This document shows, piece by piece, positions 23,854 to 64,000 of a DNA stretch of 64,000 nucleotides. The notes under the pieces were generated by a model. It did not search any database. It was given only the letters and a program-made list of their open reading frames with translations, and was not told the origin of the DNA. The stretch lies in the IMG/VR virus record IMGVR_UViG_3300023218_000062, one strand, 5' to 3'. Origin of the DNA: a virus (Duplodnaviria > Caudoviricetes). Position numbers and translations under genes: made by a program. Position 1 is the first letter of the stretch; each line of letters starts with the position of its first letter.

Positions 23854-23929
23854 CTTAAGATCAAAAACTATTCAGGGGGCATCCTATGCCCCCCTGAATT
23901 TTATCCTATTCTAATGCCTTTAACTCATC

Positions 23930-24055: not shown

Positions 24056-24061
24056 TTACTT

Positions 24062-24843: not shown

Positions 24844-24864
24844 TAGGTTCAATCGTATCATCAG

Positions 24865-24895
24865 GAGGATGCGAATCATTCGCATCCTCTTTTTT
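24865..24895 (+). terminator. Intrinsic terminator, duplicated at 25958-25989
   Basis: GAGGATGCGAAT-C-ATTCGCATCCTC followed by a T-run; identical in both places. Confidence 0.9.
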
Positions 24896-25050
24896 ATCCT
24901 AGGGCCTTTAACTCATCATCAACCATTTGTCAAGAACTTTCGACGGAACTGCATTACATAAAAAAATTTACAATTATTTTCAGAAATCGGTTGACGATCC
25001 TGAAAATATCTGTATAATCCTTAATTACATTCACTGATAAGGGTAACACG

Positions 25051-32851: not shown

Positions 32852-33436
32852 TCAATGATGGTCAGCTTTATTAATAGGTTGAGCATTTAAAAATTCTACA
32901 ACATCATCTAATGATCGAGGGGAATGATCTGTAGGCATATCATTACTATCTACACCAACATCCATTGATCGTCCTATTTGTGGCAATGATCCATGTGAAT
33001 GTCCATACAAATGTATGGCACCATGATGATGTTTATTCCAAACTCTATGAGCATAATGGCACATGTATATTGGTGTTTTATTATAATTACATTCTATTAC
33101 ATCACAGAATAATTTAATTTTCTTAGTTCTCTTACAAAAATTTTGAACCGCATCAGATGCCATTTGTCTATCATGGTTCCCATATATAAAGTATTGAGTT
33201 CCTTTGAGTTTTTTAAGGATTTCTATGATTTTATTTTGATTGAGGAATGCGAAATCTCCTAGATTGAAAACAATATCATCGTGTCCAACCTTTGAGTTCC
33301 AATTTTCAATGAGGGTTTCATTCATTTCTTCAACAGAAGAAAATGGTCTATTACTATATTGGATAACATTTTTATGTCCAATATGCATATCTGATGTTAC
33401 CCAATATTTTATATTGTTTTGCAATTTTATTTTCAT
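32852..33436 (-). CDS. Calcineurin-like metallophosphoesterase
   Basis: SDMHIGH, NLGDF, GNHD, CHYA, LYGHSHG. Confidence 0.92.
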   Translation of the reverse strand: MKIKLQNNIKYWVTSDMHIGHKNVIQYSNRPFSSVEEMNETLIENWNSKVGHDDIVFNLGDFAFLNQNKIIEILKKLKGTQYFIYGNHDRQMASDAVQNFCKRTKKIKLFCDVIECNYNKTPIYMCHYAHRVWNKHHHGAIHLYGHSHGSLPQIGRSMDVGVDSNDMPTDHSPRSLDDVVEFLNAQPINKADHH

Positions 33437-37115: not shown

Positions 37116-37766
37116 TTATAACCGTCGTTTATCCTGTTGCTCACTTTTCCACGCGTTTGCCGCATGATGATTTATTGGAGCGGACAAGAATTTATTAATA
37201 TAAGATTGATTTTTTGAAATACTATTCTGTAAATCGTTACTAGAATCGTTGTTAATGACAACAAAATTTCTAAATATTTTCCGTATCTGTGAAATATTGG
37301 ATTTAACCTCTTCATGCATCTTTTCAGACTCTCTAGGGTCAACTCTTCTACGCCTAGATTCACTACGATCTAATGCAATTTCCAATGAAGTTTTAACATA
37401 TATAGCTAATGTGTCATAACCCAAATCTTTTAACTTTTCATTAATTTTTCGCATTCTATTCAACTTTCTTCCAGTAGAATCAATCAATAAACCCATTCTA
37501 CCATCAACATGCATGTTCATTTTTCTTTGCGCAACCTGAGCACTATACTTTCGCAAATATTCATCATATCCCCTCCCCACAATTCCAATATTGGCAGTTA
37601 AGTGCTCATAAATATCATCTAAATTAACTGTCCGTAATCCGGTCCCCCTGAAAAGTTTTGATGCCACATATGTTTTTCCACTGCCGGGCCCACCAACCAT
37701 AAAAACTGCTTTAAAAATATGTTGATCATATAACCCTTCATTTATAATATCATTAATATCCATCAT
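37116..37766 (-). CDS. P-loop kinase (zeta-toxin/AAA_33-like)
   Basis: AVFMVGGPGSGKT, VNLDD, LLIDSTG, YVKTSLEIALDR...RRRV; N-terminus MDINDIINEG. Confidence 0.8.
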   Translation of the reverse strand: MMDINDIINEGLYDQHIFKAVFMVGGPGSGKTYVASKLFRGTGLRTVNLDDIYEHLTANIGIVGRGYDEYLRKYSAQVAQRKMNMHVDGRMGLLIDSTGRKLNRMRKINEKLKDLGYDTLAIYVKTSLEIALDRSESRRRRVDPRESEKMHEEVKSNISQIRKIFRNFVVINNDSSNDLQNSISKNQSYINKFLSAPINHHAANAWKSEQQDKRRL

Positions 37767-38575
37767 ATAGCCTCTATAGTTTTTTTAATGTGATAATAAA
37801 TATCATCTCCCAATATCATACAAGTGTCATTCGTCCAAAGTTCTTTAAATTTTATATCTGGTAAAGAAGTTCTTATATCAATAGTAGAGACCGTGGTGGG
37901 ATCAAAAAAATCATTTAAAAACATTATTACAGATTCTCTAGTAATTTTATCATCACCACCGGAATACTTAGATATTGCACTATGTAATTCCCTCAACGCC
38001 CCCGTCAAATTTATAGATACTTGTGCTTGCGTTAAATTACTATATTTTTCAATATAACGAGGTATTTTGTTATTAATAAAATCCTCCCAGCTTTTCGGTG
38101 TGTCAAATAGCCCTCTAATAGCAACATCAAATGAATAGAGACTACGCACATAAGTATTATCCATCTTTTTTCTGTATGCATACCAAAAATCTGTGTCTGA
38201 TACGATTGCTTTAAATTTATTTGGCAATACAACACTTGAAATTGCACCATACATTATAGCAGTTTTTCTATCAGCAGTACATATTAGCGCGCGATTTCTC
38301 TTAGGTAATCCCCTCCAACTATCAATATTGCTAATAATTTCCGTATATCCAAAACCAGTTTTTTCACTCCCCCCTCTAGTACCAACGGAGGGATCAACTA
38401 ATATCGGATGCATATTTTGAGAATAAGTTGCCGAGCCCCTATATAATACAGGATAATCAAATTGTTTGAAATAATTAGAATAGGTAGTCTTGGCTAGTTG
38501 TATAACCTCATCCATTTCTAACATACGTGTTCTATTAGATGAAGTTTCCAATAGTACTATGTCATGTAATTTCAT
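37763..38575 (-). CDS. Putative ART-fold protein (paralog of 38572..39372)
   Basis: LYRGS...W..LPKR.RALICTADRKTAIMYG..DFW; MKLHDIVLLE start. Confidence 0.5.
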   Translation of the reverse strand: MKLHDIVLLETSSNRTRMLEMDEVIQLAKTTYSNYFKQFDYPVLYRGSATYSQNMHPILVDPSVGTRGGSEKTGFGYTEIISNIDSWRGLPKRNRALICTADRKTAIMYGAISSVVLPNKFKAIVSDTDFWYAYRKKMDNTYVRSLYSFDVAIRGLFDTPKSWEDFINNKIPRYIEKYSNLTQAQVSINLTGALRELHSAISKYSGGDDKITRESVIMFLNDFFDPTTVSTIDIRTSLPDIKFKELWTNDTCMILGDDIYYHIKKTIEAI

Positions 38576-39372
38576 GATAATACCGCTTTCTGTAAATCAG
38601 TATATTCCACATTCTCATTTATAAGAATACATGTATTATCTGTCCAAACTTCATTTTTCAAATAAAGTTTAGATATCTCTGAATGAGAATTTATTATAGA
38701 AAACTTGTTTTTATCAGGATGAAGAATATTATTCATGATAATATCATATGCATTCATATTCATATTTGTTTTAAGTTCGTGTTTAATATATTCGTATAAC
38801 TTATTAGAACCTACAGGAACCGCTTTGACTGTTTCATATGTAATACTTTCTAACACCTCCCGTAATCCCTGATATGTTTTAATTTTGCTTAAAGGAAAGA
38901 ATTTATTCACCATGTTTCTAAGACTCATGTTAAAGTCATATAAGCCAGATATGTTTTTATCAGACAGCCCATGTTTAAAACCATCCCATAAATCTGGTGT
39001 AGGTACGACACCCATCCTAAATGAATCAGGTGGTATTACAGCATATACTGTCCCATATGCGGAGGCGAAATGTTTAGACATAGAACATATCAAAGATTCA
39101 GAACGTTTCGGATATGCAGACCATAAAGGATCATTACTCATTAACAACGTATATTCATTACTCGTATGCGCCGAAATTCTTCCCCTCGCCTTAGGATTAG
39201 CTATACTAGCTACCGCACGTCCAATAGAAGAACTACCCCTAAAAATATGATAATTATCCTGTGTATCAAAATATTGAGAATAACCATTCTTCAGTATCTC
39301 AACAAGTTTATTCTGATCATGTATTAAAGTCTTATATGATGACTCACTTTCATAAAGTTGATAAAGTAACAT
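38572..39372 (-). CDS. Putative ART-fold protein (paralog of 37763..38575)
   Basis: IFRGS...W..YPKRSESLICSMSKHFASAYG..DLW; MLLYQLYE start. Confidence 0.5.
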   Translation of the reverse strand: MLLYQLYESESSYKTLIHDQNKLVEILKNGYSQYFDTQDNYHIFRGSSSIGRAVASIANPKARGRISAHTSNEYTLLMSNDPLWSAYPKRSESLICSMSKHFASAYGTVYAVIPPDSFRMGVVPTPDLWDGFKHGLSDKNISGLYDFNMSLRNMVNKFFPLSKIKTYQGLREVLESITYETVKAVPVGSNKLYEYIKHELKTNMNMNAYDIIMNNILHPDKNKFSIINSHSEISKLYLKNEVWTDNTCILINENVEYTDLQKAVLS

Positions 39373-41377: not shown

Positions 41378-42418
41378 TTATTCGTTTGCATGTTCTATAA
41401 TATTTTTAAAATTTTTTGTTATTTCTTCCCATGTTAGAAAGGAAATTGAATTAAAACACTTCTTTCGATTCATAGCTATACATTTTAGAACTGCAGCGGT
41501 TAAATTATCATCAATATGCCCGTTTATACCGGGCATTATAATATCCTTTGGTCCCATAACTCTATACCCTGCAACTGGAGTTCCACAAGCCATAGCTTCT
41601 AACATAACAATACCAAATGTATCAGTCTTAGATGGAAACACAAAAATATCCGCATTTTGATATTCTTGTTCTAACTCGTTACCCCTTTTACATCCCATAA
41701 AATTTATTGATTGGTCACTAGCATATTTCTTTTTCAATTTTTTAAGTGCTGGTCCATCACCTACAACGATCTTTTCAAGTTTAGGAACGAAAAATTTCTG
41801 ATCAATATCTAAAAAATCCTCTATATTCTTTTCTTCAGATACCCTTCCTACATACAGAAGTCTTATTTTATTATTATCTCTTATCTTATTTGAAAACTTA
41901 AAAGAAGAGGTATCAACCCCTCTACCCCATGCCCTTATAGTATGGTTTATATCATGGTTGCGTAGCTTCTTTCCCATGGAGTTTGTGGTCACCAATACAC
42001 AATTAGCATTATAGTGTATTTTTCTAAGATATTTGTATACTAATTCTTCTGATATAAATGGAAATTTTTGATTTATATATTCTGGAAAGTTTGTATGATA
42101 TGATGTTGTGTAAGAAACATTATTATTTTTACAAACCCTAGAAGCTTGAAATCCTATAGGCCCTTCAGTTGCTATATGTATATAAACAGGATCAATATTT
42201 TTGATAATTTCAAATATTTTTTGTTTTGGCGGAAACGCCAAACGTATTTGGCGGTAAAATGGTAGGGGTGCAGTAAATTGGAAATCATTTGGTGATATTA
42301 TTGTGACAGTATAATCCATACATTCTAGATGCTTTTTAGTTTGCTTTAATGTAGTGACCACGCCGTTGACTTGTGGCTCATACGCATCAGTAAATATTAA
42401 TAATTTTTTCCTACTCAT
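41378..42418 (-). CDS. agt: GT4 (GT-B) glycosyltransferase, Agt/diacylglycerol glycosyltransferase-like
   Basis: IFTDAYEPQVNGVVTTL, IHIATEGPIG, YTTSYHTNFPEY, WGRGVD, LYVGRVSEEKNI, VVGDGP, DIFVFPSKTDTFGIVMLEAMACGTPV, VMGPKD. Confidence 0.8.
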   Translation of the reverse strand: MSRKKLLIFTDAYEPQVNGVVTTLKQTKKHLECMDYTVTIISPNDFQFTAPLPFYRQIRLAFPPKQKIFEIIKNIDPVYIHIATEGPIGFQASRVCKNNNVSYTTSYHTNFPEYINQKFPFISEELVYKYLRKIHYNANCVLVTTNSMGKKLRNHDINHTIRAWGRGVDTSSFKFSNKIRDNNKIRLLYVGRVSEEKNIEDFLDIDQKFFVPKLEKIVVGDGPALKKLKKKYASDQSINFMGCKRGNELEQEYQNADIFVFPSKTDTFGIVMLEAMACGTPVAGYRVMGPKDIIMPGINGHIDDNLTAAVLKCIAMNRKKCFNSISFLTWEEITKNFKNIIEHANE

Positions 42419-42768
42419 AATCTATGTATTTTTATATAACATATATTAAATTTTTGTTATATTCATAATATTTGACTACTCCCCCCACTAAAGTGTTTTG
42501 ATCAAAAATTGTCAATATATTCATCGTCCTCGGGTTTAAGATTTTTGATTGTTTCTATTACATCTTCTGGTAACTCATATTGCCATGCAATAGTTGCAAC
42601 CTTGTCAAATTCAGCTGGTGTAGAAATATTTGATTTCACCCAATTGATCAGCCATTCTTTTTGGGAACGAGTCATCCCCCCTCCGAGATTAAAGGATAAC
42701 GCCATATTTCTAAATAAGGTAAAATTCGCCATGATATTAAGTTTAAAGTTTAAACGGCATACTTTTAT

Positions 42769-43350
42769 TTATATAATTTCTAAGATGTTCTTCCATCCAT
42801 CGGCTTCTATTATGTGTTTTTCAGGTTCTTCTTCTTGTATGAATGATGTATATATTTTTATTGGATGTATGCCAAATTCATAACATTTATTCAAAAAACT
42901 ATGTCTATCATCTATAAGGTAATCCAATTTTATCAAATATTTTTCTTTTGTCACGATATAACCAAAGTTTCCTTTTCCAAACAGCCTAGCCAAATTATTA
43001 AATTTTGATCTACCCCCGTTTCCTTTATTATGCGTTACAAAAACTATATTGTAAGTTTTCATTAGCGTTTTAATAGACTCTACCGCATTTTCGACCGGCG
43101 GTATAGTATCATATACACCTTCCTGTCTCCAAAAATCCATAGGATGTACATTAGAGTTTTTCATTGGCGGAAAATGACTAGAAAGATTGTACCTAACTTT
43201 GTTTCCGGCATCGATATAATCCTGAATATTATAGGGCAAATCATTGTTTTCTGACATATTTTTAAGCCAATGCCACCAATTTATATCAGACCTTAACGTA
43301 GTTAAATCTACGTCAACTCCTATGGTTTTTCTGTCACTTAAAATATTCAT
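42769..43350 (-). CDS. HAD-family 5'(3')-deoxyribonucleotidase-like
   Basis: IGVDVDLT (DxDxT), VFVTH, K.LIKLDYLIDDR. Confidence 0.8.
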   Translation of the reverse strand: MNILSDRKTIGVDVDLTTLRSDINWWHWLKNMSENNDLPYNIQDYIDAGNKVRYNLSSHFPPMKNSNVHPMDFWRQEGVYDTIPPVENAVESIKTLMKTYNIVFVTHNKGNGGRSKFNNLARLFGKGNFGYIVTKEKYLIKLDYLIDDRHSFLNKCYEFGIHPIKIYTSFIQEEEPEKHIIEADGWKNILEII

Positions 43351-43900
43351 CTATTACCCCTTTTACGGCTATATAATGATCTTCGATTGTAGTGTCATTA
43401 TCTCTATCAACCCTTCTTGTTATTTCTGGAAAGGCGGTAATCCAATCTCGACTGTCGTTATCAAAACTACAATTCTTTCTACCCCATTGTAATATAAGTA
43501 AAGATGTTGGTCCGAATGCCTCATATAATGGTTTTATCTCTTCTATAAACCCACCATCCGGTAAAATAAACTTATCATGATTGGAGAGCCTTGTTATATC
43601 TGTTCTTACACATTCACCAAAATAAGTTTTACCGTGGACAGGTTTGACCCATTCTTCACCTATCTTTATAAGATAATTTCGCTGAGATAATCCGCCTAGT
43701 TTATCCCATGGCAAATTTTTATCCACTGCATATCTTTCATCCCATTCTTCCTTGGGTATTTTTGATATTACTAATGCTATATTGATAAGGGTAAATTTAA
43801 AGGACATCATCGTATATCCATTTCGGTTAATGAACTCTTCCGCAATAGTATCCTTTCCACTTTGAGGGGGGCAATTAAGTACTACTATTTTTCTATTCAT
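43334..43900 (-). CDS. Deoxynucleoside monophosphate kinase-like
   Basis: VLNCPPQSGKDT, RNYLIKIGE, ILPDGGF.EE, SFDNDSR. Confidence 0.75.
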   Translation of the reverse strand: MNRKIVVLNCPPQSGKDTIAEEFINRNGYTMMSFKFTLINIALVISKIPKEEWDERYAVDKNLPWDKLGGLSQRNYLIKIGEEWVKPVHGKTYFGECVRTDITRLSNHDKFILPDGGFIEEIKPLYEAFGPTSLLILQWGRKNCSFDNDSRDWITAFPEITRRVDRDNDTTIEDHYIAVKGVIDEYFK

Positions 43901-44027
43901 ACATCATCTTAAAACGTGCCGTATATCTTACAACCTAGATAGCTCTATGTCAAAGTATTTCAAGTACTTCATTAAATCACACTTTTTTGGCTTATATAAA
44001 TAAAATCGCGTATACATTGGAGAAAAA

Positions 44028-44741
44028 ATGAGTATAATACGACGTTCACTGGGGCTCTGTAAAAAAATAAATGCATCAACGTGTATAGAACAGGCAAGAA
44101 CGCTTAATACAAACCCATGGGAAGCTTACGCCACTGTAACAATATTTGATAGAAAAAAAACCACAGGTTTATTTAAGGATGGAGTATTAATAAATCAAAT
44201 AGATTTTAAGAAATTTACATCTAAATTAAATCATTTGAAGCAAATTAAGGATTTAGGGGGTGTGCCTCGTTATTATAGGGATCTTATCAGAAAACCGGGG
44301 TTACCGGAAGGATTTCAAGCTAGGGTAATTTTAATAAATGACAGGAATTATATTGATAATATTAATATACACAATAATGTTTTGTATACTATTAATAAAA
44401 AGATTATCACCATACCCTGTCCATATATAGATGAAAATAATGCAATAATTCTAGATTTTTTCACTGTATTTAATTCATTAAAGCTTAATAAGGATGATAT
44501 AAAATGCTATAATGCAAGAATAAAATTCGAAGATGAGAAAGAAGATGAAATAGAGATGGCAGTGGGAAGAAAAAAACAAAAAGATGGAAGCACTGGGGCT
44601 CGTATTATTAAAATGTCAGGAAAATATTCTTCTGAGTTCGGTGGCATACAAAATAAAATTAAGGCCGAGAATTCTAATAGTTCTTCACATATAACTCACG
44701 GTCTTAATAGTTCTTCACATATAGTTAACATTCTATTATAA
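44028..44741 (+). CDS. Hypothetical protein; 19-bp duplication (44675-44693 / 44705-44723) at the 3' end
   Basis: 237-aa ORF with GGAG RBS; TAATAGTTCTTCACATATA repeated with a 30-bp period. Confidence 0.6.
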   Translation: MSIIRRSLGLCKKINASTCIEQARTLNTNPWEAYATVTIFDRKKTTGLFKDGVLINQIDFKKFTSKLNHLKQIKDLGGVPRYYRDLIRKPGLPEGFQARVILINDRNYIDNINIHNNVLYTINKKIITIPCPYIDENNAIILDFFTVFNSLKLNKDDIKCYNARIKFEDEKEDEIEMAVGRKKQKDGSTGARIIKMSGKYSSEFGGIQNKIKAENSNSSSHITHGLNSSSHIVNILL

Positions 44742-44771
44742 TATAGTTATTATAAAGAATATGGAAAACTT

Positions 44772-45401
44772 ATGACTTGTATAGTAGCATATAAAGATTT
44801 ATATGGGAAGATTTATATGGGTGGAGACGATATTGCCGCGTATCCTGATTCAGAGAGTTATGCAAAAAGATCATACGCACATTCAAAGATTTTTACTAAA
44901 ACGTTAAAAAATGATGTCTCAATTAAACACCCTGATTCTAATCCTAGACCCTTATTAATTGGATACACTACATCATTTAGAATGGGACAAATTCTAGAAT
45001 ATCATTTTGATGTCCCTAAATTAAATCCAGAGACAATAAGCAATAATATGGAATATATGGTTAAATCATTTGTTCCAGCCTTATATGAGTTATTTGACGA
45101 TAATTTATATATAAGAAAATCTGATGCTTCTGAAATTTCAGGCGGAGAGTTCATTGTGGCGTTCGAAAATAATATTTTTACTATATCATATGATTTCTCT
45201 GTCATGGAATTTAAGGGGCCCTTTGCATGTGTTGGTTGTGGTCAGTCATACGCTCTTGGTGCATTATATGTTGCATCTGAACATATGTCAACTAAGTCTA
45301 TTAACGTTTCAAATGGAGAGAATATAGTTAGGGCTGCTGTAAAAGCTGCCGCAAAATTTAGTGGATTTGTGGGGGATAATATTACTATACTATCTACCTA
45401 A
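44772..45401 (+). CDS. HslV-like Ntn-hydrolase (threonine protease)
   Basis: M-T-CIVAY..IYMGGD, IGYTTSFRMGQIL, CVGCGQSYALGAL, AAKFSGFVG. Confidence 0.75.
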   Translation: MTCIVAYKDLYGKIYMGGDDIAAYPDSESYAKRSYAHSKIFTKTLKNDVSIKHPDSNPRPLLIGYTTSFRMGQILEYHFDVPKLNPETISNNMEYMVKSFVPALYELFDDNLYIRKSDASEISGGEFIVAFENNIFTISYDFSVMEFKGPFACVGCGQSYALGALYVASEHMSTKSINVSNGENIVRAAVKAAAKFSGFVGDNITILST

Positions 45402-45487
45402 ACAAAGTTGACATATTATATTTAAGCATATAAGATACTCCGAATAGATCAATAGGTGATCTATAATTAAATTATACAATTAAATTA

Positions 45488-45847
45488 ATGAAGTTAAACC
45501 ATATGAGAAAATTTAATACTAATCAGATATGTGATATACGTCACACCGTAAACATTGAAAATACTAGCCCCACAGCGGTCGCCAAGAAATATAAATCCTC
45601 ACCATCCACCGTTCGTAGAGTAGCATCTGGAGATAGTTATTCAGATATTCCTATGCCAAAGGCGATTCCGGGGTATTCCAATTATATTGCATATCCTAAT
45701 AACAAAATTTGGTCTATTAACCGAAATAAGTTTTTAACGCCTACAGTTAAAAAAGAAGACTACAAGACCAAGTATTTCAATCTTCGCTCTGGTAACGGAG
45801 TTAGACGATCAATACGCTCAAATGAGGTCTCTTCACAATTGTTTTAA
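45488..45847 (+). CDS. HTH + NUMOD4-like small protein
   Basis: AVAKKYKSSPSTVRRV (HTH-like) then KAIPGYSNY...KIWS (NUMOD4-like); no nuclease domain seen. Confidence 0.45.
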   Translation: MKLNHMRKFNTNQICDIRHTVNIENTSPTAVAKKYKSSPSTVRRVASGDSYSDIPMPKAIPGYSNYIAYPNNKIWSINRNKFLTPTVKKEDYKTKYFNLRSGNGVRRSIRSNEVSSQLF

Positions 45848-45866
45848 TGCGTGAAAAGAGGGAAAT

Positions 45867-45891
45867 AAAAAGGGGGCAATGCCCCCTTTTT
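45867..45891. terminator. Bidirectional terminator between convergent genes
   Basis: AAAAAGGGGGC-AAT-GCCCCCTTTTT. Confidence 0.85.
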
Positions 45892-45911
45892 ATTCTCATT
45901 GTATTTTTAAA

Positions 45912-46895
45912 TTATATATTTTTTCTTTTTGACTCCAGACTTTCCGCGATAGTTACAACTGAATGAAAAGATTCTGTATTTTTTTCAGACAGCTTCTTAG
46001 TAGATTTCAAGTGTTTATGAGCCTTTTTTATAAGATCATTAGCAACTTTTAAATTACCCTTTTTCTTATTGGTTTCAGCTTCCTTAATTAACGCTTTCGC
46101 TTCTTTTAAGAATTTTGCTGCCTTATTATATCCCTTCTCGATATCAGATGTGTCAATGTTGTGATCTTCGTTTATCACAGAAAATTGACTCTCAAAAAGT
46201 TGTTCCTTTTCTTCTTTTATATCTTTAAGTATAGTGTTGAACTGCTTTTTGGTTGCATTGATATTATCATTAACCTTGGCTTCAATTAATAGACTGTAAA
46301 CATTAATATTTTTCATAGTATTTTTTGCTCTTTTGTGTGTTTATTTATCGAAGTTAAATTCTTTATCTTCTTTATCAGATTTGGGATCTGAGTCTCTAGC
46401 ATCTGAAAATACACTATAGTCAAAATCTGGGTCTTCATCATCTTCCTCATAGTCGCTATCGGTACTCAAATCAAAGTCAAGATCATCTAAATCGGGAAGT
46501 TCTTCATTACCTTCTTCATCTTCACCACTTTTAAAATCCATACCACGATTTTGAAGTATCTGCTTGAGTTTGTGCGTTATATCAGTTCTTTTTTCTCCCG
46601 CAAAGATATCATCTTCTTCACTATCATAATCCGCGCCGCTGTCAGAGTCTTCAGGGTCTTCACTATCATAATTCATTCCAAAATCATTGTCTCCATCGAA
46701 GGACATTTCACCATTCTCCGATGATTCTATGCCCTCGATATCATCTTGCCCATTAACATAGGCCCCTTTCATACTCTTACCATGACGGGCAGGGCCAAAT
46801 TCTTTTTCAAAATCTAGTCCAGTATTCTCTGTATCTTCTTCATTATCCGTCATTCTGATATCAAATTCATTTATGATATTATAAAGTTCGCTCAT
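45912..46895 (-). CDS. Two hypothetical proteins (45912-46316 basic/coiled; 46341-46895 highly acidic)
   Basis: N-termini MKNINVYSLLIE and MSELYNIINE; the second is D/E-rich. Confidence 0.7.
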
Positions 46896-47005
46896 TTTTA
46901 ACTTACCTTTGCAGTTTATTTATACTTTATTTATAAGATACATGTATAATTGTTGACAATGTGAGCTTAAGCCAGTAATATTCCACTATTAATAGAGGAA
47001 TAAAA

Positions 47006-48082
47006 ATGAGAATAGAGGAAGATATGAAACTAGATTTTTCAGATGTTTTAATACGTCCTAAAAGAAGCAATTTGGCATCTAGAAAAGATGTTACGTTACA
47101 GAGAGATATAGTATGTAAATATTCTGGTAAAACTCTTTCGGGTGTGCCCATAATGAATTCTAATATGGGAACATCAGGTACTTTCAAGGTAAGCTCGGAA
47201 TTAACTAAGCAGAAGTGTTTTTCTACCGCTCATAAATTCTATAATTTGGAAAGCTGGGAAAATAAATTGAGTGCTGAATATGATGCCGAGAATTCAAGTT
47301 TTTTTGATAAATTCTTTTTTCCTATGGGACTAAATGATGCAGATCTTAGCGATCTTGAACATTTAATACTAGAAAAGGATTACCCTTTACAGAATATAAT
47401 GATTGATGTTGCCAACGGTTATTCTGAAAAGTTTGTTAATTTTATTTCTAGAGTTAGAAATATGTTTCCGGATCTTATTATAGCAGCGGGAAACGTAGCA
47501 ACTCCTGATATGACAGAAGCCTTAATTTTATCAGGAGCAGATATAATAAAAGTAAACATAGGAGCAGGATCGTGCTGCACCACTCGTTTAAAGGCTGGTG
47601 TAGGATATCCTCAACTGAGTGCAGTAATAGAATGTGCAGACGCTGCACATGGGCTAGGAGGTCATATTATATCTGATGGGGGTTGTGTTGATGTTGCGGA
47701 TTTTTGCAAGGCGTTTGGAGCGGGGGCAGATATTGTAATGTCTGGATCTTTTTTCGCCGCAACAGATGAATCAGATTGTGATGAGTATATAGATCCTGAT
47801 ACAGGTAAAATATATAAAGTAAATTATGGAATGTCATCAAAAACTGCACAAGATAAATATGGTGACGGAATGAAAGACTATAGAAGTAGCGAAGGTCGTA
47901 CTGTAATTCTCCCCCCGTCTGGACCAACTAAAGACGTAATAAACGATATATTAGGTGGTATACGTAGCTGTTGCACATATGTAGGGGCAAATAAGATAAA
48001 GGAACTACCCAAACGCACAACTTTTATTAAAGTAAATAACACGCACAACACGATAAATGAATCAAATACAATAGGAAACTAA
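47006..48082 (+). CDS. guaC: GMP reductase
   Basis: MRIEEDMKLDFSDVLIRPKRS.LASR, IDVANGYSE, AGNV.T, IGAGSCCTTR..GVGYPQLSAVIECADAAHGLGGHIISDGGC, YGMSS, YRSSEG. Confidence 0.96.
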   Translation: MRIEEDMKLDFSDVLIRPKRSNLASRKDVTLQRDIVCKYSGKTLSGVPIMNSNMGTSGTFKVSSELTKQKCFSTAHKFYNLESWENKLSAEYDAENSSFFDKFFFPMGLNDADLSDLEHLILEKDYPLQNIMIDVANGYSEKFVNFISRVRNMFPDLIIAAGNVATPDMTEALILSGADIIKVNIGAGSCCTTRLKAGVGYPQLSAVIECADAAHGLGGHIISDGGCVDVADFCKAFGAGADIVMSGSFFAATDESDCDEYIDPDTGKIYKVNYGMSSKTAQDKYGDGMKDYRSSEGRTVILPPSGPTKDVINDILGGIRSCCTYVGANKIKELPKRTTFIKVNNTHNTINESNTIGN

Positions 48083-48096
48083 AGGAGATTTATATT

Positions 48097-48423
48097 ATGA
48101 AAGATGAAGTAGTATTATTAAAATTAAGTGCCAGTTTTGCAGAAATTATCTGTAAAGTTAGTGATAGTGTCGCAGAAAAACTTATAGAAAAATCACCTAT
48201 TGATGCCTTTACTGTTATTTCACCATTTTTGATTCAAATGCAAAGAGATGAAAATGGAGATTTGGCCACCGGTTTACATGCTTTAAGCCTGATGATGAAA
48301 GGAGATCCGAAAAATGTAAAATTAAGATTAAATGACAGAGATATATTATTTGCGGCAAGACCCACAGATGATATAGAAAAACAATATAGACAAATGGTTA
48401 GTGGGATACAATTAGTGAAATAA
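48097..48423 (+). CDS. Conserved T4-like-phage-type hypothetical (Sm/SH3-like)
   Basis: VVLLKL..EII, P.DDIEKQYRQMVSGIQL pattern; AAGGAG RBS. Confidence 0.55.
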   Translation: MKDEVVLLKLSASFAEIICKVSDSVAEKLIEKSPIDAFTVISPFLIQMQRDENGDLATGLHALSLMMKGDPKNVKLRLNDRDILFAARPTDDIEKQYRQMVSGIQLVK

Positions 48424-49005
48424 TCATGACATGTATATGTTTATAAATATTATAGTAAACTGAAGATGTGGGCAATCATGGATTTACAATTAATTATAAC
48501 AATATTATTAATAATATCGGCAATATATGTTGTTGGGGGTATTATATCTTGTAGTATCGTATTATATCAAACCAAGGATTTTGAAGAAGCACTACAAGCA
48601 GGGATAATGTGGCCAATAGGATTATATTGGGTAATTTTAACTATATTACGACATTAAGTTACAAACTCAATATCCGATTAATGCACGTCTTCTTGCAATA
48701 TAATACTCTTGTTCATAGATGTCATGCATAATGGCTTTTTCATCCCATTCTTTACTGTGTTTATCCCATACGATATAAGAACCATCTTCGCCATGGACAA
48801 GAAAGAAATTGACCCCGCCATAGTTTGCAGGGTTATTTTTATCACATGGAATCATCTCATTCATTTGTTTTTTCGCTATTGCGTCATAAATTTTCAGTTT
48901 TATTGCAGAAGCTACTTTTGATTCTTTTTCTGTGATCGTTTTAAATGTAATCATAGTAATATAAATACTTTTCAGATAAAAATTATTTATATATTCCATA
49001 TTAAC

Positions 49006-49635
49006 ATGAATCTATTTAAAGAATTTAACCTTATGGAGGCGGAGAAGGCCGCTAATAAGGAAATCAAATATTCTATAGACATTATAAACCAAATGTATAA
49101 TGAATGGAAAAAGATCAAACGGCGCGTGAATGCCGTAGACATAGTTGTCACCACGGCCAACAAGCTATCTGTAATATCTCCCGCTGCTATAGATAGAATA
49201 CATGAAGCTTCAAGGGTAAAATTAACCTCTTTATTGATGCGCTGTATGGAACTGGGCTATTGGAAACCTTTAATCGAAAAGGCTCCCATATACAAAAAAC
49301 TATATCCATTAATTGCAAAACTCCACTCATATGATGCTAGAACAGGGACGGGGGGAACCCTAAAAGAGGTTATTCTCACCCGTTTGAGTGCCGCTCAGAG
49401 TTATCAAAACAAATTAGCAGACGGGACCATAGTATTCGTAGCATATGAACCTAAAATCACACCATCATATCAGAAATATTTATTTGGATCTGAATCTGAT
49501 AGAATTGTTGCTACTTTCAAAATGCAGACTTTAGAACTTCCACAAGATTATGCTTCATTATTAGAAACTTTAAGAATAAATCATGAAAAATCTATTAAAA
49601 AATTTAAAAATTCAATCAATAAAGGAAAGAAATAA
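49006..49635 (+). CDS. Hypothetical protein
   Basis: 209 aa; N-terminus MNLFKEFNLME. Confidence 0.65.
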   Translation: MNLFKEFNLMEAEKAANKEIKYSIDIINQMYNEWKKIKRRVNAVDIVVTTANKLSVISPAAIDRIHEASRVKLTSLLMRCMELGYWKPLIEKAPIYKKLYPLIAKLHSYDARTGTGGTLKEVILTRLSAAQSYQNKLADGTIVFVAYEPKITPSYQKYLFGSESDRIVATFKMQTLELPQDYASLLETLRINHEKSIKKFKNSINKGKK

Positions 49636-49669
49636 ATATAATAAATAAAATAACAATAAAGGAACAATC

Positions 49670-50371
49670 ATGAGTCAACAATGGTTTGGCAGAGTATATA
49701 AAGAAGATAAAAGAGATTTAGATTTCAAAATTGATGAAATTTTAACAACTATAGACATGCCTGACATATCAGAAAAGTTTTGGTGGGCTGATGGATGGAC
49801 TGGAAATCAAGGTGCTACATCCCACTGCGTGTCTTATAGTTGGAGTCATTGGTTTGAAGATGGTCCCGTAATTCAAGATGCTATAATAGGTAGGCAAAAG
49901 CCTGTATATGATACTACTATATTATATAATACATTCAGAAAATATGACGGCATAGAGGGTAATTACGATGGTACAACTGTTAGAGCAGGTGCTAAAACCT
50001 TTCAAAAATTGGGTATTATTAATGAATATAGATGGGCTCAAACTATAGAAGATGTCATCAACACTCTACTATACTTGGGTCCCATGGTTGTAGGTACTAA
50101 ATGGACAGAAGGAATGAATAATCCGAGTTCTGCACAACATATAATTCGGCCTTCTGGACGAGCATCTGGTGGCCATGCATATTTACTCAATGGTATTAAC
50201 ATGGAGAAGGAATTATTCAGGATAAAAAATTCTTGGGGTTCCACTTGGGGATATCGTGGCGCGGCATACATACGTTTTTCGGATTTTGAAAAACTATTAA
50301 AAGATCGCGGTGAGGCGTGTGTAGCATTTGAAAATAAAATAAATTCAATCGACGACCTCTCTGAAATATGA
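49670..50371 (+). CDS. Papain-like (C1) cysteine peptidase
   Basis: NQGATSHCVSYS (Q...C), GGHAY (His), IKNSWG (Asn); terminator at 50371-50401. Confidence 0.88.
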   Translation: MSQQWFGRVYKEDKRDLDFKIDEILTTIDMPDISEKFWWADGWTGNQGATSHCVSYSWSHWFEDGPVIQDAIIGRQKPVYDTTILYNTFRKYDGIEGNYDGTTVRAGAKTFQKLGIINEYRWAQTIEDVINTLLYLGPMVVGTKWTEGMNNPSSAQHIIRPSGRASGGHAYLLNGINMEKELFRIKNSWGSTWGYRGAAYIRFSDFEKLLKDRGEACVAFENKINSIDDLSEI

Positions 50372-50421
50372 AAAAAGGGGGGCTAAGCCCCCCCCTTTTT
50401 TAAGTCATCGTATCATCTATC

Positions 50422-50552
50422 TTGACAATTTCGAGAGGATTCTTGTTTCACAGTCCTGTGCATTGCTCCATACAGGAGATTCAGTCTTGCTAATTCCGTG
50501 TGCCCCACGGTTAAAATGTTTTTAGCTGCATTCACATCTCTGACATGATACG
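50422..50552 (-). mobile_element. IS200/IS605 tnpB 3'-end remnant with right end
   Basis: Reverse strand YHVRDVNAAKNILTVGHTELA..., ending GAATCCTCTCGAAATTGTCAA. Confidence 0.7.
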
Positions 50553-50916
50553 CTGAATTCGTTCCACTTTCAATTTTTGTTTTTCAAAATTATCACTTTA
50601 TTTTTCTTTCTTTGCCTGAATAAATACGTATTTTATAAATAGTTGAAATGAATATATCCAACGAATATGAAAGTACAACAGCTTATGGAAATTGCAGAGA
50701 AATATATAAACGCATACCAATATTACAAACAGATGTACAATACTAATAAAAATATGACTAGAGATTTCATTATAACGACAGTTGCTAGGATGTTTTTAAT
50801 TCCAAATATCAAAGACTTTCACACTTATGTGTTGAAAAGGGATAAAAATGAAAAACATGGAATGCTTTATCCTAAATAATTAATGGGAGTTACACTAAAA
50901 AGACAGCGTGTGAGGT

Positions 50917-51498
50917 TTGGTTTCGATGATTAGAATATTACAAATAACAATTGTTAGTTTATTTCTATTTGCGCCGCGAGCGCTTGCAGAAACTACAATA
51001 GCCGGGGTTTTTATAGTGACCAATGGGCTAGGTTATGATTCTCCCGGATATGGTATACAAATAGGACATAATGATAGATATGGAAACTGGGGTTGGGATG
51101 TCGAAGGTATGGCAGTAAATCATGGGAAAATCGGATCGAATAAAGGTTTTCGCTTACAGACTATTGGAATGGGAAGAAGATTTTTTGGAAACTATTTTAT
51201 AGAAGCAGGCATTGAATGGGGTGGCTATAAATCTGAGTTTCCAGATCGGCCAGCATGGGTAAAGTATGGGCGAGCGCCGGGAGTTGGAATCGGGGCATTA
51301 CAAGATGGTGTTGAATGGAAAATCCGCTATTTTGCGAAAGACACTACACCAAACAACACATCTGTGGCGGCTGCTGCAGTTGATATTCCGTTTGGTGAAT
51401 GGTCTATTGGAGCCACTTTAGAGCGATGGAAATTTGATCAAAATGATGATCGTTTATCAGGTATGCAAGTAGCATTGACATATGGAAGAAAATTTTAA
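50917..51498 (+). CDS. Outer-membrane beta-barrel-like protein
   Basis: Signal-peptide-like ILQITIVSLFLFAPRALA-E, alternating aromatic/Gly beta strands, C-terminal ..VALTYGRKF ending in Phe. Confidence 0.6.
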   Translation: MVSMIRILQITIVSLFLFAPRALAETTIAGVFIVTNGLGYDSPGYGIQIGHNDRYGNWGWDVEGMAVNHGKIGSNKGFRLQTIGMGRRFFGNYFIEAGIEWGGYKSEFPDRPAWVKYGRAPGVGIGALQDGVEWKIRYFAKDTTPNNTSVAAAAVDIPFGEWSIGATLERWKFDQNDDRLSGMQVALTYGRKF

Positions 51499-52262
51499 TT
51501 ATAATATGCCATACTAATAATGCCATTTTCATCTTCATATAGATAAGAACAAAATTCTACCCAACAACCACAATTCAAATACCTGACATTATTAATAATT
51601 TTATCTTCTGCATTGTGAATATGGCCACATATAACACCATTTGCATCATGCTCTTTCGCACATTCTACAACTAATTTTTCGTAATTATTAATATATTGTA
51701 TGGAACGTTTAACACTATGTTTTATCCATTGTGCCAAACTCCATTCTTTCATTTTAAAAAATCTTCTTAATTTATTTTGGAAATTATTTGCCCATATAAT
51801 CAATTTATAACTATAATTCCCTAAAGCATATATAAATGGATACATTCTAATAAGACCATCAAATTCATCACCATGCAGAATAAAAAATTCATCACCATTT
51901 TTTGTCGTATATGTGTCATTGTACTTTATGGTTATTCCATTAAAATTAACACCATCAGGTGATTCTTCTAAAAACTCTTCAGAAAGGAAATGATCATGAT
52001 TCCCTCTTATGTATGTAATTTTCACACCTTTATCTGCCATTCTAAATAATTTTTTTATTATCTTTCTATGTCTAGACCAAAATACTTTGTGGCTAAAATT
52101 TGTCATATCAATAATATCCCCTACAAGAAATAGCTGTTGGATTATATATTTCCCATTCTTGTCTTCTAAGGACTTTAAGAAATCATATAGTTTATTATAT
52201 TGGCAGTTAGGGTTTCCTAGATGTACATCGGATATCCAAATAGTAACGGGTTTTATTTTCAC
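51495..52262 (-). CDS. plcP: PlcP/LpxH-like metallophosphoesterase (phospholipase C type)
   Basis: WISDVHLG, LFLVGDIID, KGVKITYIRGNHD, LHGDEFD, WSLAQWIKHSVK..I..YE, NGVICGHIH.AE, YLNCGCWVE. Confidence 0.78.
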   Translation of the reverse strand: MKIKPVTIWISDVHLGNPNCQYNKLYDFLKSLEDKNGKYIIQQLFLVGDIIDMTNFSHKVFWSRHRKIIKKLFRMADKGVKITYIRGNHDHFLSEEFLEESPDGVNFNGITIKYNDTYTTKNGDEFFILHGDEFDGLIRMYPFIYALGNYSYKLIIWANNFQNKLRRFFKMKEWSLAQWIKHSVKRSIQYINNYEKLVVECAKEHDANGVICGHIHNAEDKIINNVRYLNCGCWVEFCSYLYEDENGIISMAYYN

Positions 52263-52290: not shown

Positions 52291-52366
52291 TGGTGCCAAT
52301 AGAGGGATTTGAACCCCCGACCTTTTCCATACCAAGAAATTGCTCTTCCGGCTGAGCTATATTGGC
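52291..52366 (-). tRNA. tRNA-Thr(GGU)
   Basis: GCCAATA/TATTGGC, ATTTC-TT-GGT-AT-GGAAA, GGGGG-TTCAAAT-CCCTC, ACCA. Confidence 0.9.
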
Positions 52367-53158
52367 TTATTTATACTATTTATCATCCGGGCCCAATTGC
52401 GCAGGCGGTAATCTTCATACTTTGGCTCAAGCCGATGTATCACTACACTATACATATAAACTTCTGGATTGTCAATCCACTTTTGGCCTTCTTTACAGCT
52501 TGAATTCCATTCATGAGCAAATCTCCATATCTCAAGAGATTTCTTTTTAAAATCATCGGGCATTTTACTATCAATTTTTTGTGGAATAGATTCATTAAAT
52601 ATCCCAGTGTTAATGGCTTCTTTCTTGCCAATAGTTTTTAATTTTTTGGTATTTATTGCCACACATTCAAAAGCATATCGAGCATAAGCCTTTTTCATTT
52701 TTGAGGCTTCAATCCATTTTGGATCTCTAGCTTTATAAAAATCTGTGTAATATTGTATTGTCTTTGTGTTATCATTTTGAACTATTCTATATTTTTCAGG
52801 AACCCAATAGCTTACATCTTTTTCCAGCGAGGGTTTCTTTTTCTTTCCTACAGGTTCTAATATAATTCTAGGTGTGTTCCCAAATCTATATCGGATAAAT
52901 TTAAAGAATCTATATGGGACTTCTACCGTAAGTTTATTATTTGAATCCATTAATATGCTTGTATTCTACTTTTACTATTCTCTGTGGAGGATACCATACA
53001 GCACTGCTAGGTTCTTGTTTTTCAAAAACCCCTGTATTTTTTATTTCATTTAATCTAGTTTCTAAAGTATATCTACCTTGAATAATTTGTTCTTCAATTA
53101 TTGGCATCTTTTTTCCATTAATATAAATCTTGTATTCAATATATTCTCTATTTTCCAT
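52357..53158 (-). CDS. Two hypothetical ORFs (52357-52950, 52937-53158)
   Basis: Overlapping stop/start arrangement between tRNA-Ser and tRNA-Thr; the first has an ASCH-like 'C..W..NP.V' ending. Confidence 0.6.
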
Positions 53159-60513: not shown

Positions 60514-60591
60514 TGGTGCGCATCCCAAGATTTGAACTTGGAACCTTTCGATTATCACAGTCGAATGCCCTATCAATTGAGCTAGTCGCGC
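60514..60591 (-). tRNA. tRNA-Ile-like with 9-nt anticodon loop (CTGTGATAA); possibly degenerate
   Basis: TTCGA/TCGAA stem, CCAAG-TTCAAAT-CTTGG, ACCA; one acceptor mismatch. Confidence 0.6.
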
Positions 60592-60967: not shown

Positions 60968-61042
60968 TGGAAGGAATGTAGGGAATCGAACCCTATTCAA
61001 CAGGATCAAAGTCTATTGGCTCACCATATGCTCTTCATTCTT
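60968..61042 (-). tRNA. tRNA-Gln(UUG), several mismatches
   Basis: CT-TTG-AT loop, TAGGG-TTCGATT-CCCTA, 3' CCA; acceptor has an A-C mismatch and the D-stem is weak. Confidence 0.65.
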
Positions 61043-61389: not shown

Positions 61390-62070
61390 TTATTTTACCC
61401 ACCAGTTAATCGAATTATACACTTCTGTTTGGGTTTTATGGTTTTTATGATATTGTTTGTATAATGTATTTCCTGAAGTTTTAATTGGTGTAAGATAATT
61501 TTCTTGATGCGCTACCACTATTCTTTTTTTATTTTGCTCTGCCGCCTGACTTGAAACTAATATATCATCCATATAATAATATTTAAACTTATTCACATCT
61601 ATTATTATGTTATTGGTGTTCCAGCAACTAACGCCGTTGCCTATTACTTCCACTTCCCTGTCTCTAATATTTTCGTCTTTAAAATGATAATATTTTTTAT
61701 AATCCTTGAAATAATTTTTTATTTTCTTGTGTTTTTCAAATTTTCTTCCATGATATGATATTATCACATCATCATTGTATTCATTTAGTTTTTGTATACT
61801 ATATTTTATATAATCTGAGGGGTATAATATATCATCATCTATACAAAAATAATATTCGTCTGGATTAGTTGCCCAAAAAACTTTACCGCTTGATTTAAGG
61901 TCGACCCCTTGGTGTATAGATATTTTTTCTTCCTTGAATTTTTCTGGTATGGTTTCAAAATTATTTAGATATAATCTAATATACGATACTTGATCATATA
62001 TTGATTCTATTACTTTTATGGCGCTATCTGTTCTTTCAGGCATAGTTGCCATGTTGGCAGATATTTTCAT
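61390..62070 (-). CDS. GT-A-fold glycosyltransferase
   Basis: ANMATMPER, YLNNF, YYFCIDDDILYPSDY, GNGV, MDDIL. Confidence 0.8.
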   Translation of the reverse strand: MKISANMATMPERTDSAIKVIESIYDQVSYIRLYLNNFETIPEKFKEEKISIHQGVDLKSSGKVFWATNPDEYYFCIDDDILYPSDYIKYSIQKLNEYNDDVIISYHGRKFEKHKKIKNYFKDYKKYYHFKDENIRDREVEVIGNGVSCWNTNNIIIDVNKFKYYYMDDILVSSQAAEQNKKRIVVAHQENYLTPIKTSGNTLYKQYHKNHKTQTEVYNSINWWVK

Positions 62071-62693
62071 TTATTGTAAACCTCCTTATTATGACCAATT
62101 CCTATACCGGGCCGTCCGGGATACCCCTTGATGCCTATAACACCACCATTCTGAGGGTAAATTTTTTTCTTACCTGTAAATCGTTGCCAAAGTTTATAAT
62201 CTAACGATTTGGTTTGATTCAAGACCTTTTTAAAATCTTCTATAGCTTTTCCTTTCATGGCGGTTGAACACAAACTAGCATGTTTTTTATTATTCATGCA
62301 TTTCTCGGTAGTGGTATCATTAAGATGTCTATATACGCTGGGGGCTTCACCCACAAGATCATTAATTTGTAGCCATTTATAGCATTGTGCTAACCACCAT
62401 GGAGCATATTCGTCGTCATCTTCTACTATGACAAGATGTGTTCCATCTATATGCTTTAATCCTTCTTTCATATTTCTAGCTTGAGTATTTTTACCGGGGC
62501 TCCATAACGGTTTGGGTCTTATATGTAAGATTTCCCAATCTTTTATGTTAGGAGTTTTCATCGCTTCAGGGCCATCATCTATGATAATCCATTTTACAGG
62601 ACCAGTATATTCTTGAGCTTTCATATACTCTACACATTTAGAAAATGCTTCGGGTCTTGCACCTGTGGGGGTTATAATATTTAATATCTTCAT
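62067..62693 (-). CDS. GT2-like glycosyltransferase
   Basis: IITPTGARP, WIIIDDG, VIVEDDDEY. Confidence 0.75.
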   Translation of the reverse strand: MKILNIITPTGARPEAFSKCVEYMKAQEYTGPVKWIIIDDGPEAMKTPNIKDWEILHIRPKPLWSPGKNTQARNMKEGLKHIDGTHLVIVEDDDEYAPWWLAQCYKWLQINDLVGEAPSVYRHLNDTTTEKCMNNKKHASLCSTAMKGKAIEDFKKVLNQTKSLDYKLWQRFTGKKKIYPQNGGVIGIKGYPGRPGIGIGHNKEVYNK

Positions 62694-62702
62694 TATTTGA
62701 TC

Positions 62703-63335
62703 TCAGTCACTTTTATTATTTGAAAATAGCTTAAATTCTGCGAAACTTGTTTCTTTGGGATCAGATCCCTTTTCGAATGGAAACGGATTTTTCCAACTGT
62801 ATATCAAATTAAATTCTTTTTCATTTTCTGAAATCCAATCAGTATATTTACGGTGGCGGACATGTACGGGTTTCCTTGAGTTGCCATCATAATTAGATGA
62901 ATATATTAATACCAACCACTCTGATGTACTAAAGAGGTTTCTCATATATCGATGAAATGTCTCGTCTTCTACTAAATGAAATATTACATCTAAAGACAAT
63001 ACTAATGGAGATTTTAGTGTTTTAATAATTGGATCGGAGCAATGGAAAAACTTCCAATTCTTTTTATGTTCGAACATTTTACTACAGTGCGATACGGCCT
63101 CTTTAGAAACATCAATTCCTATGTATTTTTTAAAATTAAATTTGCTACACTGATTTCCATCACCCGACCCAAATTCGATTGCCTCTGATATTTTATATTT
63201 AGATGATAGTTCATTTATTATCCTTGCCTTGTATTCTGCAAGTCTTCCGTATGAACCAGCACCAGAATTTCCACCAGCGCTATACCTACTTTCCCAATAT
63301 GATGAACTCGTGAAATTTTTAGTCTTATTATTCAT
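62703..63335 (-). CDS. Class I SAM-dependent methyltransferase
   Basis: YWESRYSAGGNSGAGSYG, IEFGSGDGNQ, YIGIDVS, LSLDVIFHL. Confidence 0.85.
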   Translation of the reverse strand: MNNKTKNFTSSSYWESRYSAGGNSGAGSYGRLAEYKARIINELSSKYKISEAIEFGSGDGNQCSKFNFKKYIGIDVSKEAVSHCSKMFEHKKNWKFFHCSDPIIKTLKSPLVLSLDVIFHLVEDETFHRYMRNLFSTSEWLVLIYSSNYDGNSRKPVHVRHRKYTDWISENEKEFNLIYSWKNPFPFEKGSDPKETSFAEFKLFSNNKSD

Positions 63336-64000
63336 TTTATTTCTTTGAATTCTCTTGGCTTTATATCAACTTTTTGTATTTTTTCGTAATATCCATTTGT
63401 TTGTCTATTACTAATTTCTTTGGCATATTTAATTCTCATTGGTGAGGAAGGATTGGTTTCTCTCTTCTGAGTTAGTGAATTTTGGTGAACTCTTCTATAA
63501 AACAAAGGGGTATTTATTTGGGCTATTTTAAATAGTTTCTCACTTCTAAAACAGAAATCACTGTCTGCACCACACCTCCATTCTTCATAGCCACCTAATA
63601 TATCATGGACTTCTTTTTTATGACAACCTACACCATCTGCAACTTTAGGTTTAATAACACCATGATCGGGGCATGTTCCGTTTTTATAATTATAGAACTT
63701 TAATTTACATATATCATAACCTTGTTTCATTTTGCCGTCTATAATTGATATCATGTTCTTTTTCATATGATCATCACTATCAAAAAATAATAATAAATTA
63801 TATTTGGCTATGGGTATTAAAGAGTTTTTTACTATATACGGTCCATGATTACGATCAAAATAAAATATTCTTAATTTTTCATATTTGTGTTTTATACTTT
63901 CAATACTTTTTAAGGTAATTTGGCATGCATCAATACCTAATAGAATTTCATAATTATTGTTCTTTAAGAAATATGTTTGTGTTACAATAGAATTCAAACA
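63332..64000 (-). CDS. GT2-family glycosyltransferase (N-terminus outside the window)
   Basis: NHGPYIVKN, LLFFDSDD, LGGYEEWRCGADSDF, YRRVHQNSLT. Confidence 0.8.
   Translation of the reverse strand, partial: CLNSIVTQTYFLKNNNYEILLGIDACQITLKSIESIKHKYEKLRIFYFDRNHGPYIVKNSLIPIAKYNLLLFFDSDDHMKKNMISIIDGKMKQGYDICKLKFYNYKNGTCPDHGVIKPKVADGVGCHKKEVHDILGGYEEWRCGADSDFCFRSEKLFKIAQINTPLFYRRVHQNSLTQKRETNPSSPMRIKYAKEISNRQTNGYYEKIQKVDIKPREFKEIK

Follow-up and report, generated by a model that had tools for sequence, protein, structure and literature searches.

Bacteria under phosphorus stress renovate their membrane lipids with two enzymes, the phospholipase C PlcP (also known as LpxH2) and the glycosyltransferase Agt (also known as GTcp), and these are the closest described counterparts of the genes considered here. 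The PlcP family includes S. meliloti SMc00171, Phaeobacter MED193_17359, P. aeruginosa PA3219, and the plcP product of SAR11 HTCC7211; PA3219, encoded in an operon with agt1, shares 46-47% identity with the PlcPs that have been characterised in Phaeobacter and Sinorhizobium (PMC8528852). Agt, represented by Atu2297 of A. tumefaciens and PB7211_960 of 'Ca. Pelagibacter' HTCC7211, is a GT4-family enzyme of the GT-B type (PMC8231724, PMC4796936). The plcP-agt arrangement has been described for SAR11 HTCC7211 and others, and the HTCC7211 agt gene yields glucosyl- and glucuronosyl-diacylglycerol in E. coli (PMC4796936). The present analysis concerns a 64,000-nucleotide stretch of DNA, hereafter the window, from a virus of the Caudoviricetes (IMG/VR record IMGVR_UViG_3300023218_000062), in which a preliminary description made from the letters alone had recognised one gene of each kind, both on the minus strand. 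The two open reading frames (ORFs) are present as claimed and at full length:

51495-52262, minus strand: plcP-like gene, 255 amino acids, GTG start; predicted manganese metallophosphoesterase/phospholipase C (Pfam Metallophos, E 1e-11)
41378-42418, minus strand: agt-like gene, 346 amino acids, ATG start; GT4 of the Agt/GTcp clade, predicted diacylglycerol glycosyltransferase (Pfam Glyco_transf_4 over residues 17-171 and Glycos_transf_1 over residues 179-302, E 1e-17 to 1e-24)

As far as sequence can tell, each protein is an intact representative of its family (PlcP or Agt) and has its catalytic residues in place; the gene identities and the pairing of plcP with agt are supported, and the phage probably encodes orthologues of both bacterial lipid-renovation enzymes, with which it would remodel host lipids and free phosphorus. 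The motif content first reported for the two proteins also holds, the glycosyltransferase carrying the Agt-clade motifs with a His/Asp dyad and the phosphoesterase the five metallophosphoesterase blocks. The phage origin of the window, whose G+C content is about 33%, is apparent from an RnlA-type RNA ligase, an HNH endonuclease, eight tRNA genes, and many ORFs with matches in PHROG only; relatives of the phage carry T4 gp15 and lysozyme. Megablast with a 12-kb region returned no DNA-level match to isolated phages, and the nearest protein matches to the window are 26-42% identical and lie mostly in phages of 115-485 kb.

The phosphoesterase resembles bacterial PlcP in its length class, in an LpxH-like fold with a helical lid, and in a five-block motif (D12, H14, G48-D49, G87-N88-H89-D90, H130, and G213-H214-x-H216) that is intact and is invariant in the bacterial and phage alignments. 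LpxH (UDP-2,3-diacylglucosamine hydrolase) is a sister family with a shared fold, and databases put its name on phage genes of this sort; homologues of the window protein are named 'UDP-2,3-diacylglucosamine pyrophosphatase LpxH', the copies in pelagiphage Mosig and cyanophage S-SRM01 are annotated likewise, and the nearest solved folds are LpxH. These labels and folds are what speaks for a reading in which the phosphoesterase is LpxH, the GT4 is a lipopolysaccharide (LPS) glycosyltransferase, and the phage modifies lipid A or LPS. Such a reading is nevertheless highly improbable and was rejected, being contradicted at the sequence level by the curated cut-off, by the third motif block, and by phylogeny. 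The third block reads GNHD in the window protein, in 43/43 bacterial PlcPs, and in 43/43 phage homologues, as opposed to GNRD in 5/5 true LpxH proteins; the exchange of His for Arg at this position is the hallmark separating LpxH from its paralogue LpxH2, and P. aeruginosa LpxH2 did not complement E. coli lpxH (PMC3087551). The other discriminating columns (HGDxFDG, GHIH rather than GHTH, and NxGxWxE) are likewise those of PlcP. A hidden Markov model (HMM) of 30 agt-linked bacterial PlcPs scores the window protein at 263 bits, compared with 38 bits for an LpxH HMM, whereas true LpxH scores 43 and 381 bits with the same two models, and the window protein stays below the cut-offs of the curated NCBIfam LpxH models NF003743 (49.9 bits, cut-off 134) and TIGR01854 (36.8 bits, cut-off 190).

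Cellular homologues and phylogeny likewise place the phosphoesterase with PlcP. The 80 nearest cellular homologues are 35-40% identical to it and come mostly from Alphaproteobacteria, including Pelagibacteraceae, Bradyrhizobium, Hyphomicrobium, Caulobacter, and Sphingomonas. Five beta-/gammaproteobacterial genomes searched with the LpxH model each hold one true LpxH (228-320 bits) and one separate paralogue (33-48 bits), and it is the low-scoring paralogue that resembles the window protein. Identity to agt-linked bacterial PlcPs is 35-40%, with E values of about 1e-51 to 1e-57, and likeness to the named PlcPs was judged via operon-defined orthologues such as those of the Pelagibacteraceae loci L064 and L067. 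In a maximum-likelihood tree of 64 proteins (IQ-TREE), for which the LpxH ORFs of loci L085-L089 were taken by position after tblastn with the window protein had missed them at E 1e-3, LpxH is split from all PlcP-like proteins with support of 100/100, and the window protein lies on the PlcP side within a phage clade supported at 100/99; the branching at the base of the PlcP radiation is not settled. An AlphaFold model (predicted local distance difference test score, pLDDT, 83.7) shows a phosphoesterase sandwich with an LpxH-like core and a helical lid or insert at residues 131-204, and its 25 best fold matches in the PDB are all LpxH, several with bound lipid X and all at only 17-20% identity, so the model is consistent with a protein of the LpxH/LpxH2 superfamily that handles lipids; neither sequence nor fold searches turned up a PlcP structure in the PDB. 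The protein differs from bacterial PlcP in being encoded by a phage, in belonging to a distinct phage clade, and in having two short insertions and GCWVEF in place of GDWVES. The original assignment to PlcP rather than LpxH is thus borne out by HMM scores, discriminating residues, and phylogeny, and a grouping with LpxH, the result singled out beforehand as one that would overturn the assignment, was looked for and did not appear in the tree, the HMM scores, or the GNHD block.

The glycosyltransferase can be compared with a clade whose determinants have been mapped in detail. GTcp enzymes are defined by the motifs GRVAxEKN and FPSxTDTFG and by a His104-Asp256 dyad in which Asp is not replaceable by Glu, and their diacylglycerol pocket is made up of His104, Thr162, Arg163, and Trp320 (PMC8231724). 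The window GT4 contains GRVSEEKN, FPSKTDTFG, and a Gly-rich TEGPIG. One Pelagibacteraceae Agt matches all 14 published GTcp residues at identical numbers, is hence co-linear with GTcp, and served as a bridge between the two numberings, by which the window protein keeps 13 of the 14 residues that GTcp mutagenesis proved important: G19, G86, G89, R192, and K197 equate to GTcp G16, G82, G85, R190, and K195, and T267, F268, G269, and E274 to T257, F258, G259, and E264, while H108 and D266 form the counterpart of the catalytic dyad (invariant in 14/14 aligned Agts) and H108, R166, and W330 that of the pocket residues His104, Arg163, and Trp320. The donor motifs, the dyad with Asp where other GT4 enzymes have Glu, and the equivalents of Arg163 and Trp320 are accordingly common to GTcp and the window protein.

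Across their full length, GT4s encoded directly downstream of bacterial plcP are 36-45% identical to the window protein (215-272 bits), slightly under the 46-58% reported among clade members, for which less than 25% is expected with other GT4s; the SAR11 Agt is 44% identical. The best sub-threshold NCBIfam matches are to GT4s with lipid acceptors, namely GlcN-PG synthase and monoglucosyl-diacylglycerol synthase, and the best solved GT4 structures match over the C-terminal donor domain only. A Pfam 'GT4-conflict' match (26.9 bits, 36 residues) covers the shared donor motif only and was disregarded. Clade motifs, the 13 of 14 conserved GTcp residues, and synteny with plcP all agree with the Agt-type identity proposed at the outset.

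Linkage of the two genes is common among bacteria, as the preliminary description had stated: among the 80 nearest bacterial plcP loci, 53 are followed on the same strand, within 500 bp, by a gene homologous to the window GT4 over its full length, and three more loci are cut by contig ends. The order of plcP followed by agt recurs in sister phages of the window, and where the pair is found in other phage contigs it usually forms an adjacent cassette; stop and start codons overlap in the related contigs L001, L002, L003/L004, and L097 and in the IMG/VR contig L182. L097 belongs to a T4-like phage, in which gp15, lysozyme, PhoH, DHFR, GuaC, NAD-ligase, and ClpP genes surround the cassette. The PlcP and Agt trees are congruent, each placing the window protein, together with a relative 77-83% identical to it, as sister to the proteins of L001-L003; the pair was therefore inherited together, and the 9-kb gap in the window is a secondary, derived rearrangement. 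The closest PlcP relative, P0003, lies on a 270-kb contig and its Agt counterpart, P0122, on a contig of 5.7 kb. As in the window, agt stands without plcP beside it in the close relative L248. A further contig, L184, carries the genes 7 kb apart in reverse order, which is an independent split. The congruence of the window Agt with sister-phage Agts that overlap plcP argues for retention of the two genes as what would be a functional pair after their separation.

Relatives were recovered by alignment-based scans, single-protein pattern scans of genome contigs and of IMG/VR having given none. In IMG/VR, 66 contigs (L182-L247), many of 150-350 kb, carry a phage-type PlcP, and an Agt gene lies no farther than 10 kb away only in L182, L184, and L220. 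PlcP alone seems to be a commoner phage gene than the pair. In a second IMG/VR set of 80 putative phage contigs, where PlcP is closer to the bacterial type, 24 contigs carry an Agt gene next to it. Phage PlcPs fall into at least two separate lineages of the tree, one being the jumbo T4-like clade of the window and the other a pelagimyophage clade related to Mosig and found beside pstS. Mosig is a cultured isolate in which plcP is divergent from pstS, and its PlcP groups with those of IMG/VR contigs carrying plcP-agt; in one contig (L168, 2984-8831) the order is PEPCK, plcP, agt, pstS. The PlcP copy of cyanophage S-SRM01 is itself divergent. No Agt was found near plcP in Mosig or S-SRM01 within 5 kb on either side, the only span examined. 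In the PlcP clade grouping with Mosig, L168 and L095 (3888-5723) are the loci at which plcP lies beside pstS.

On the model of the bacterial pathway, PlcP would cleave host glycerophospholipids (phosphatidylethanolamine, phosphatidylglycerol, or phosphatidylcholine) to diacylglycerol and a phosphorylated head group, and Agt would move glucose or glucuronate from a UDP-sugar onto the diacylglycerol, producing a phosphorus-free glycolipid and keeping the membrane intact; this route does not depend on contact between the two proteins. The infected cell could then draw on the head-group phosphorus, and the most plausible use would be in making nucleotides and DNA for the very large phage genome. 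We infer the two enzyme activities from the characterised bacterial pathway, and in the same manner that the genes would be active during infection and serve phosphate supply; the idea that the phage benefits through phosphorus for DNA synthesis is more speculative. As a rough figure, each copy of a genome of about 270 kb takes up some 5x10^5 phosphorus atoms, which in a small cell is a considerable share of the phosphorus bound in phospholipids. The setting of the genes is one of phosphorus and nucleotide metabolism, both elsewhere (PhoH, DHFR, and GuaC beside the L097 cassette; pstS beside plcP in Mosig and beside plcP-agt in L168) and in the window, where the neighbouring features are as follows:

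42502-42732, minus strand: 76-amino-acid ORF directly upstream of agt; no Pfam family; a 76-amino-acid ORF is likewise placed in L248
42769-43350, minus strand: HAD/NT5C-like putative nucleotidase or phosphatase; NT5C 23.6 bits (cut-off 24.8); phrog_420, E 1e-31, function unknown
43334-43900, minus strand: deoxynucleoside monophosphate (dNMP) kinase, at the head of the minus-strand block closed by agt; phrog_139, E 3e-31
47006-48082, plus strand: GMP reductase GuaC, 358 amino acids; NF003470, 451 bits (cut-off 397)
52291-52366, minus strand: tRNA-Thr(GGU), directly upstream of plcP; ARAGORN and Rfam

The minus-strand block runs from the dNMP kinase through the NT5C-like gene and the 76-amino-acid ORF to agt, so that the phage-encoded agt, unlike that of GTcp-bearing bacteria, follows the kinase and the NT5C-like gene rather than plcP. 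The GuaC and dNMP kinase genes that had been reported between plcP and agt are both present on firm matches (NF003470 and phrog_139, respectively); the nucleotidase reported alongside them exists as an ORF, and its identity as NT5C is weak, the match being sub-threshold. Genes for IMPDH or GuaC are a conserved neighbour of plcP-agt, occurring near it in L002, L003, and L097, and an NT5C-like gene lies near the L097 cassette as well.

Several observations nevertheless weigh against the proposed role of the pair. A 9-kb interval with genes on both strands separates plcP from agt in the window, and the two are therefore not co-transcribed. The product of PlcP is a phosphorylated head group, not free phosphate, and a phosphatase step would still be required, for which the HAD/NT5C-like gene next to agt is, as a guess, a candidate. 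No E. coli-type Pho box (at most three mismatches) was found upstream of plcP or agt, in which respect, as in its distance from agt, the window plcP is unlike its bacterial counterparts; the host's Pho box may differ, and a missing box says little, as a phage gene need not carry one. Neither pstS nor phoH was found within the window. A look for sequencing runs brought up four of DNA metagenomes, all belonging to one study, and none of RNA. In the glycosyltransferase, the position of GTcp Thr162, a proposed diacylglycerol-binding residue, is held by Gly165, making it the one pocket residue of four that differs, although the column is not invariant in the clade and holds T, S, P, G, or N among plcP-linked Agts. 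Lastly, 63 of the 66 phage-type PlcP genes in IMG/VR are without an Agt within 10 kb, and PlcP is thus evidently useful to phages that have no Agt of their own.

The last of these points, together with the split in the window and in a close relative and the lack of an Agt in the spans examined around plcP of Mosig and S-SRM01, would be expected if the two genes were independent of each other. PlcP would then act alone as a phospholipase of the host membrane, serving to release phosphorus, take over the host, or lyse it, while host enzymes deal with the diacylglycerol, and the GT4 would act on another acceptor, whether LPS, protein, or a different lipid. We consider such independence quite unlikely: the window GT4 keeps the Agt signature, including Asp in place of Glu in the dyad and three of the four residues of the diacylglycerol pocket, and, in agreement with the PlcP tree, it groups with sister-phage Agts whose genes overlap plcP. 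It is also conceivable that the pair does remodel host lipids and that the benefit lies in the changed membrane rather than in phosphorus supply, for example through a block to superinfection, envelope stability in a long-lived infected cell, or altered function of membrane proteins. Bacterial lipid remodelling alters surface properties relevant to phages (reviewed in PMC9804370), and aminolipids have been considered in connection with phage attachment (PMC9938194); the want of a Pho box, pstS, or phoH with the genes in the window, and the presence of the anti-defence gene Acb1 directly upstream of plcP in L097, lean the same way. A benefit of this kind is unlikely, however, as an economy of phosphorus and nucleotides is the better fit both to the placement of the cassette beside pstS or PhoH in other phages and to its nucleotide-metabolism neighbours in the window and its relatives. 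Provision of phosphorus by a plcP-agt pair accordingly remains the preferred interpretation of the locus.

A full-text literature search, with most subscription journals outside its coverage, found no description of a phage-encoded PlcP or Agt. The novelty put forward in the preliminary description stands to this extent, although the pair is not unique to the present phage, since related and unrelated phage contigs share it. A pelagimyophage survey treats glycosyltransferases as LPS modifiers only, and a virome study lists 'lpxH' under LPS biosynthesis (PMC9611531). The plcP-agt pair falls within known families and within a class already known, that of auxiliary phage genes for phosphate stress. 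Viral copies of pstS, phoH, and phoA, which in the host serve the response to such stress, are a classic case of reprogrammed host metabolism, and to our knowledge the phage genes recognised to date all concern uptake or signalling. Like pstS, phoH, and phoA of cyanophages and pelagiphages, plcP-agt is an apparent phage copy of a Pho-regulon function of the host; unlike them, it would act on the membrane phosphorus of the cell itself and not on the uptake of external phosphate.

More broadly, and with somewhat less than even confidence, plcP with or without agt may constitute a widespread and unrecognised class of phage auxiliary gene, by which infection would turn phospholipid into glycolipid and membrane phosphorus into phage DNA. 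Should this be true, the membrane would be added as a phosphorus reservoir tapped by viruses, marine glycolipid signals now taken as bacterial phosphorus stress would partly report viral infection, and 'lpxH' auxiliary genes in viromes, along with phage annotations of the type 'LpxH / LPS biosynthesis', would be mis-assigned and in need of correction. The interpretation is testable with published assays and with the cultured plcP-carrying pelagiphage Mosig.

Regulatory sites near the genes were also inspected. Promoter-like sites, consensus matches only, stand before both plcP and agt; one of them, TTGACA-17-TATAGT, lies upstream of the tRNA-Thr that precedes plcP (52475-52447, minus strand), and a sigma-70 scan of the window was not above shuffled expectation. 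The T4-type late motif TATAAATA occurs upstream of both genes, before plcP at 52368-52375 (minus strand); with 24 copies in the window against 15 expected, its enrichment is slight, and it was not relied on.

Further genes accompany plcP and agt in the window and in related contigs. Between the two window genes lie an HslV-like peptidase (phrog_1040; 44772-45401, plus strand) and a papain-like peptidase (phrog_16701, E 2e-58; 49670-50371, plus strand). A second, unrelated small metallophosphoesterase is encoded in the window at 32852-33436 (minus strand; Metallophos_2, 29 bits), and L003 has a second Metallophos gene of 262 amino acids 2 kb from its cassette (4494-5282). In L002 the GuaC/IMPDH protein (3207-5459, 750 amino acids) is split into two IMPDH halves by a Hint (intein) domain, which the window GuaC is without. 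Acb1, an anti-CBASS phosphodiesterase, occupies 9507-10004 in L097 and overlaps the start of plcP, and a 169-amino-acid ORF holds the same position in L182 (9489-9998). A DUF4326 gene flanks the cassette, before or after it, in L001 (2968-3267), L002 (2143-2454), and L003 (1489-1794), and an ART-PolyVal gene lies upstream of the cassette in L001.

Elsewhere in the window, 62067-63997 (minus strand) holds two GT2 glycosyltransferases flanking a methyltransferase-like ORF, which suggests that another module for glycans or modification, with no relation to agt, is present. An anti-restriction-like protein with an ArdC N-terminal domain and a zincin-like MPTase-PolyVal domain (E 1e-45 and 1e-28) is encoded at 25051-25938 (plus strand). 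The tRNA genes number eight by Rfam and six by ARAGORN, the matches at 60517-60591 and 60971-61042 being found by Rfam only, and an ARAGORN tRNA-Phe at 5333-5412 has an unusual AAA anticodon. Positions 8000-14000 and 22000-26000 have a G+C fraction of 0.40-0.44, compared with about 0.32, and few long ORFs, and 9809-11191 gives a partial match to a terminase-like PHROG. Finally, a Zeta-toxin/AAA_33-type kinase-like protein (37116-37766, minus strand) adjoins two paralogous phrog_12810 genes (37763-39372).

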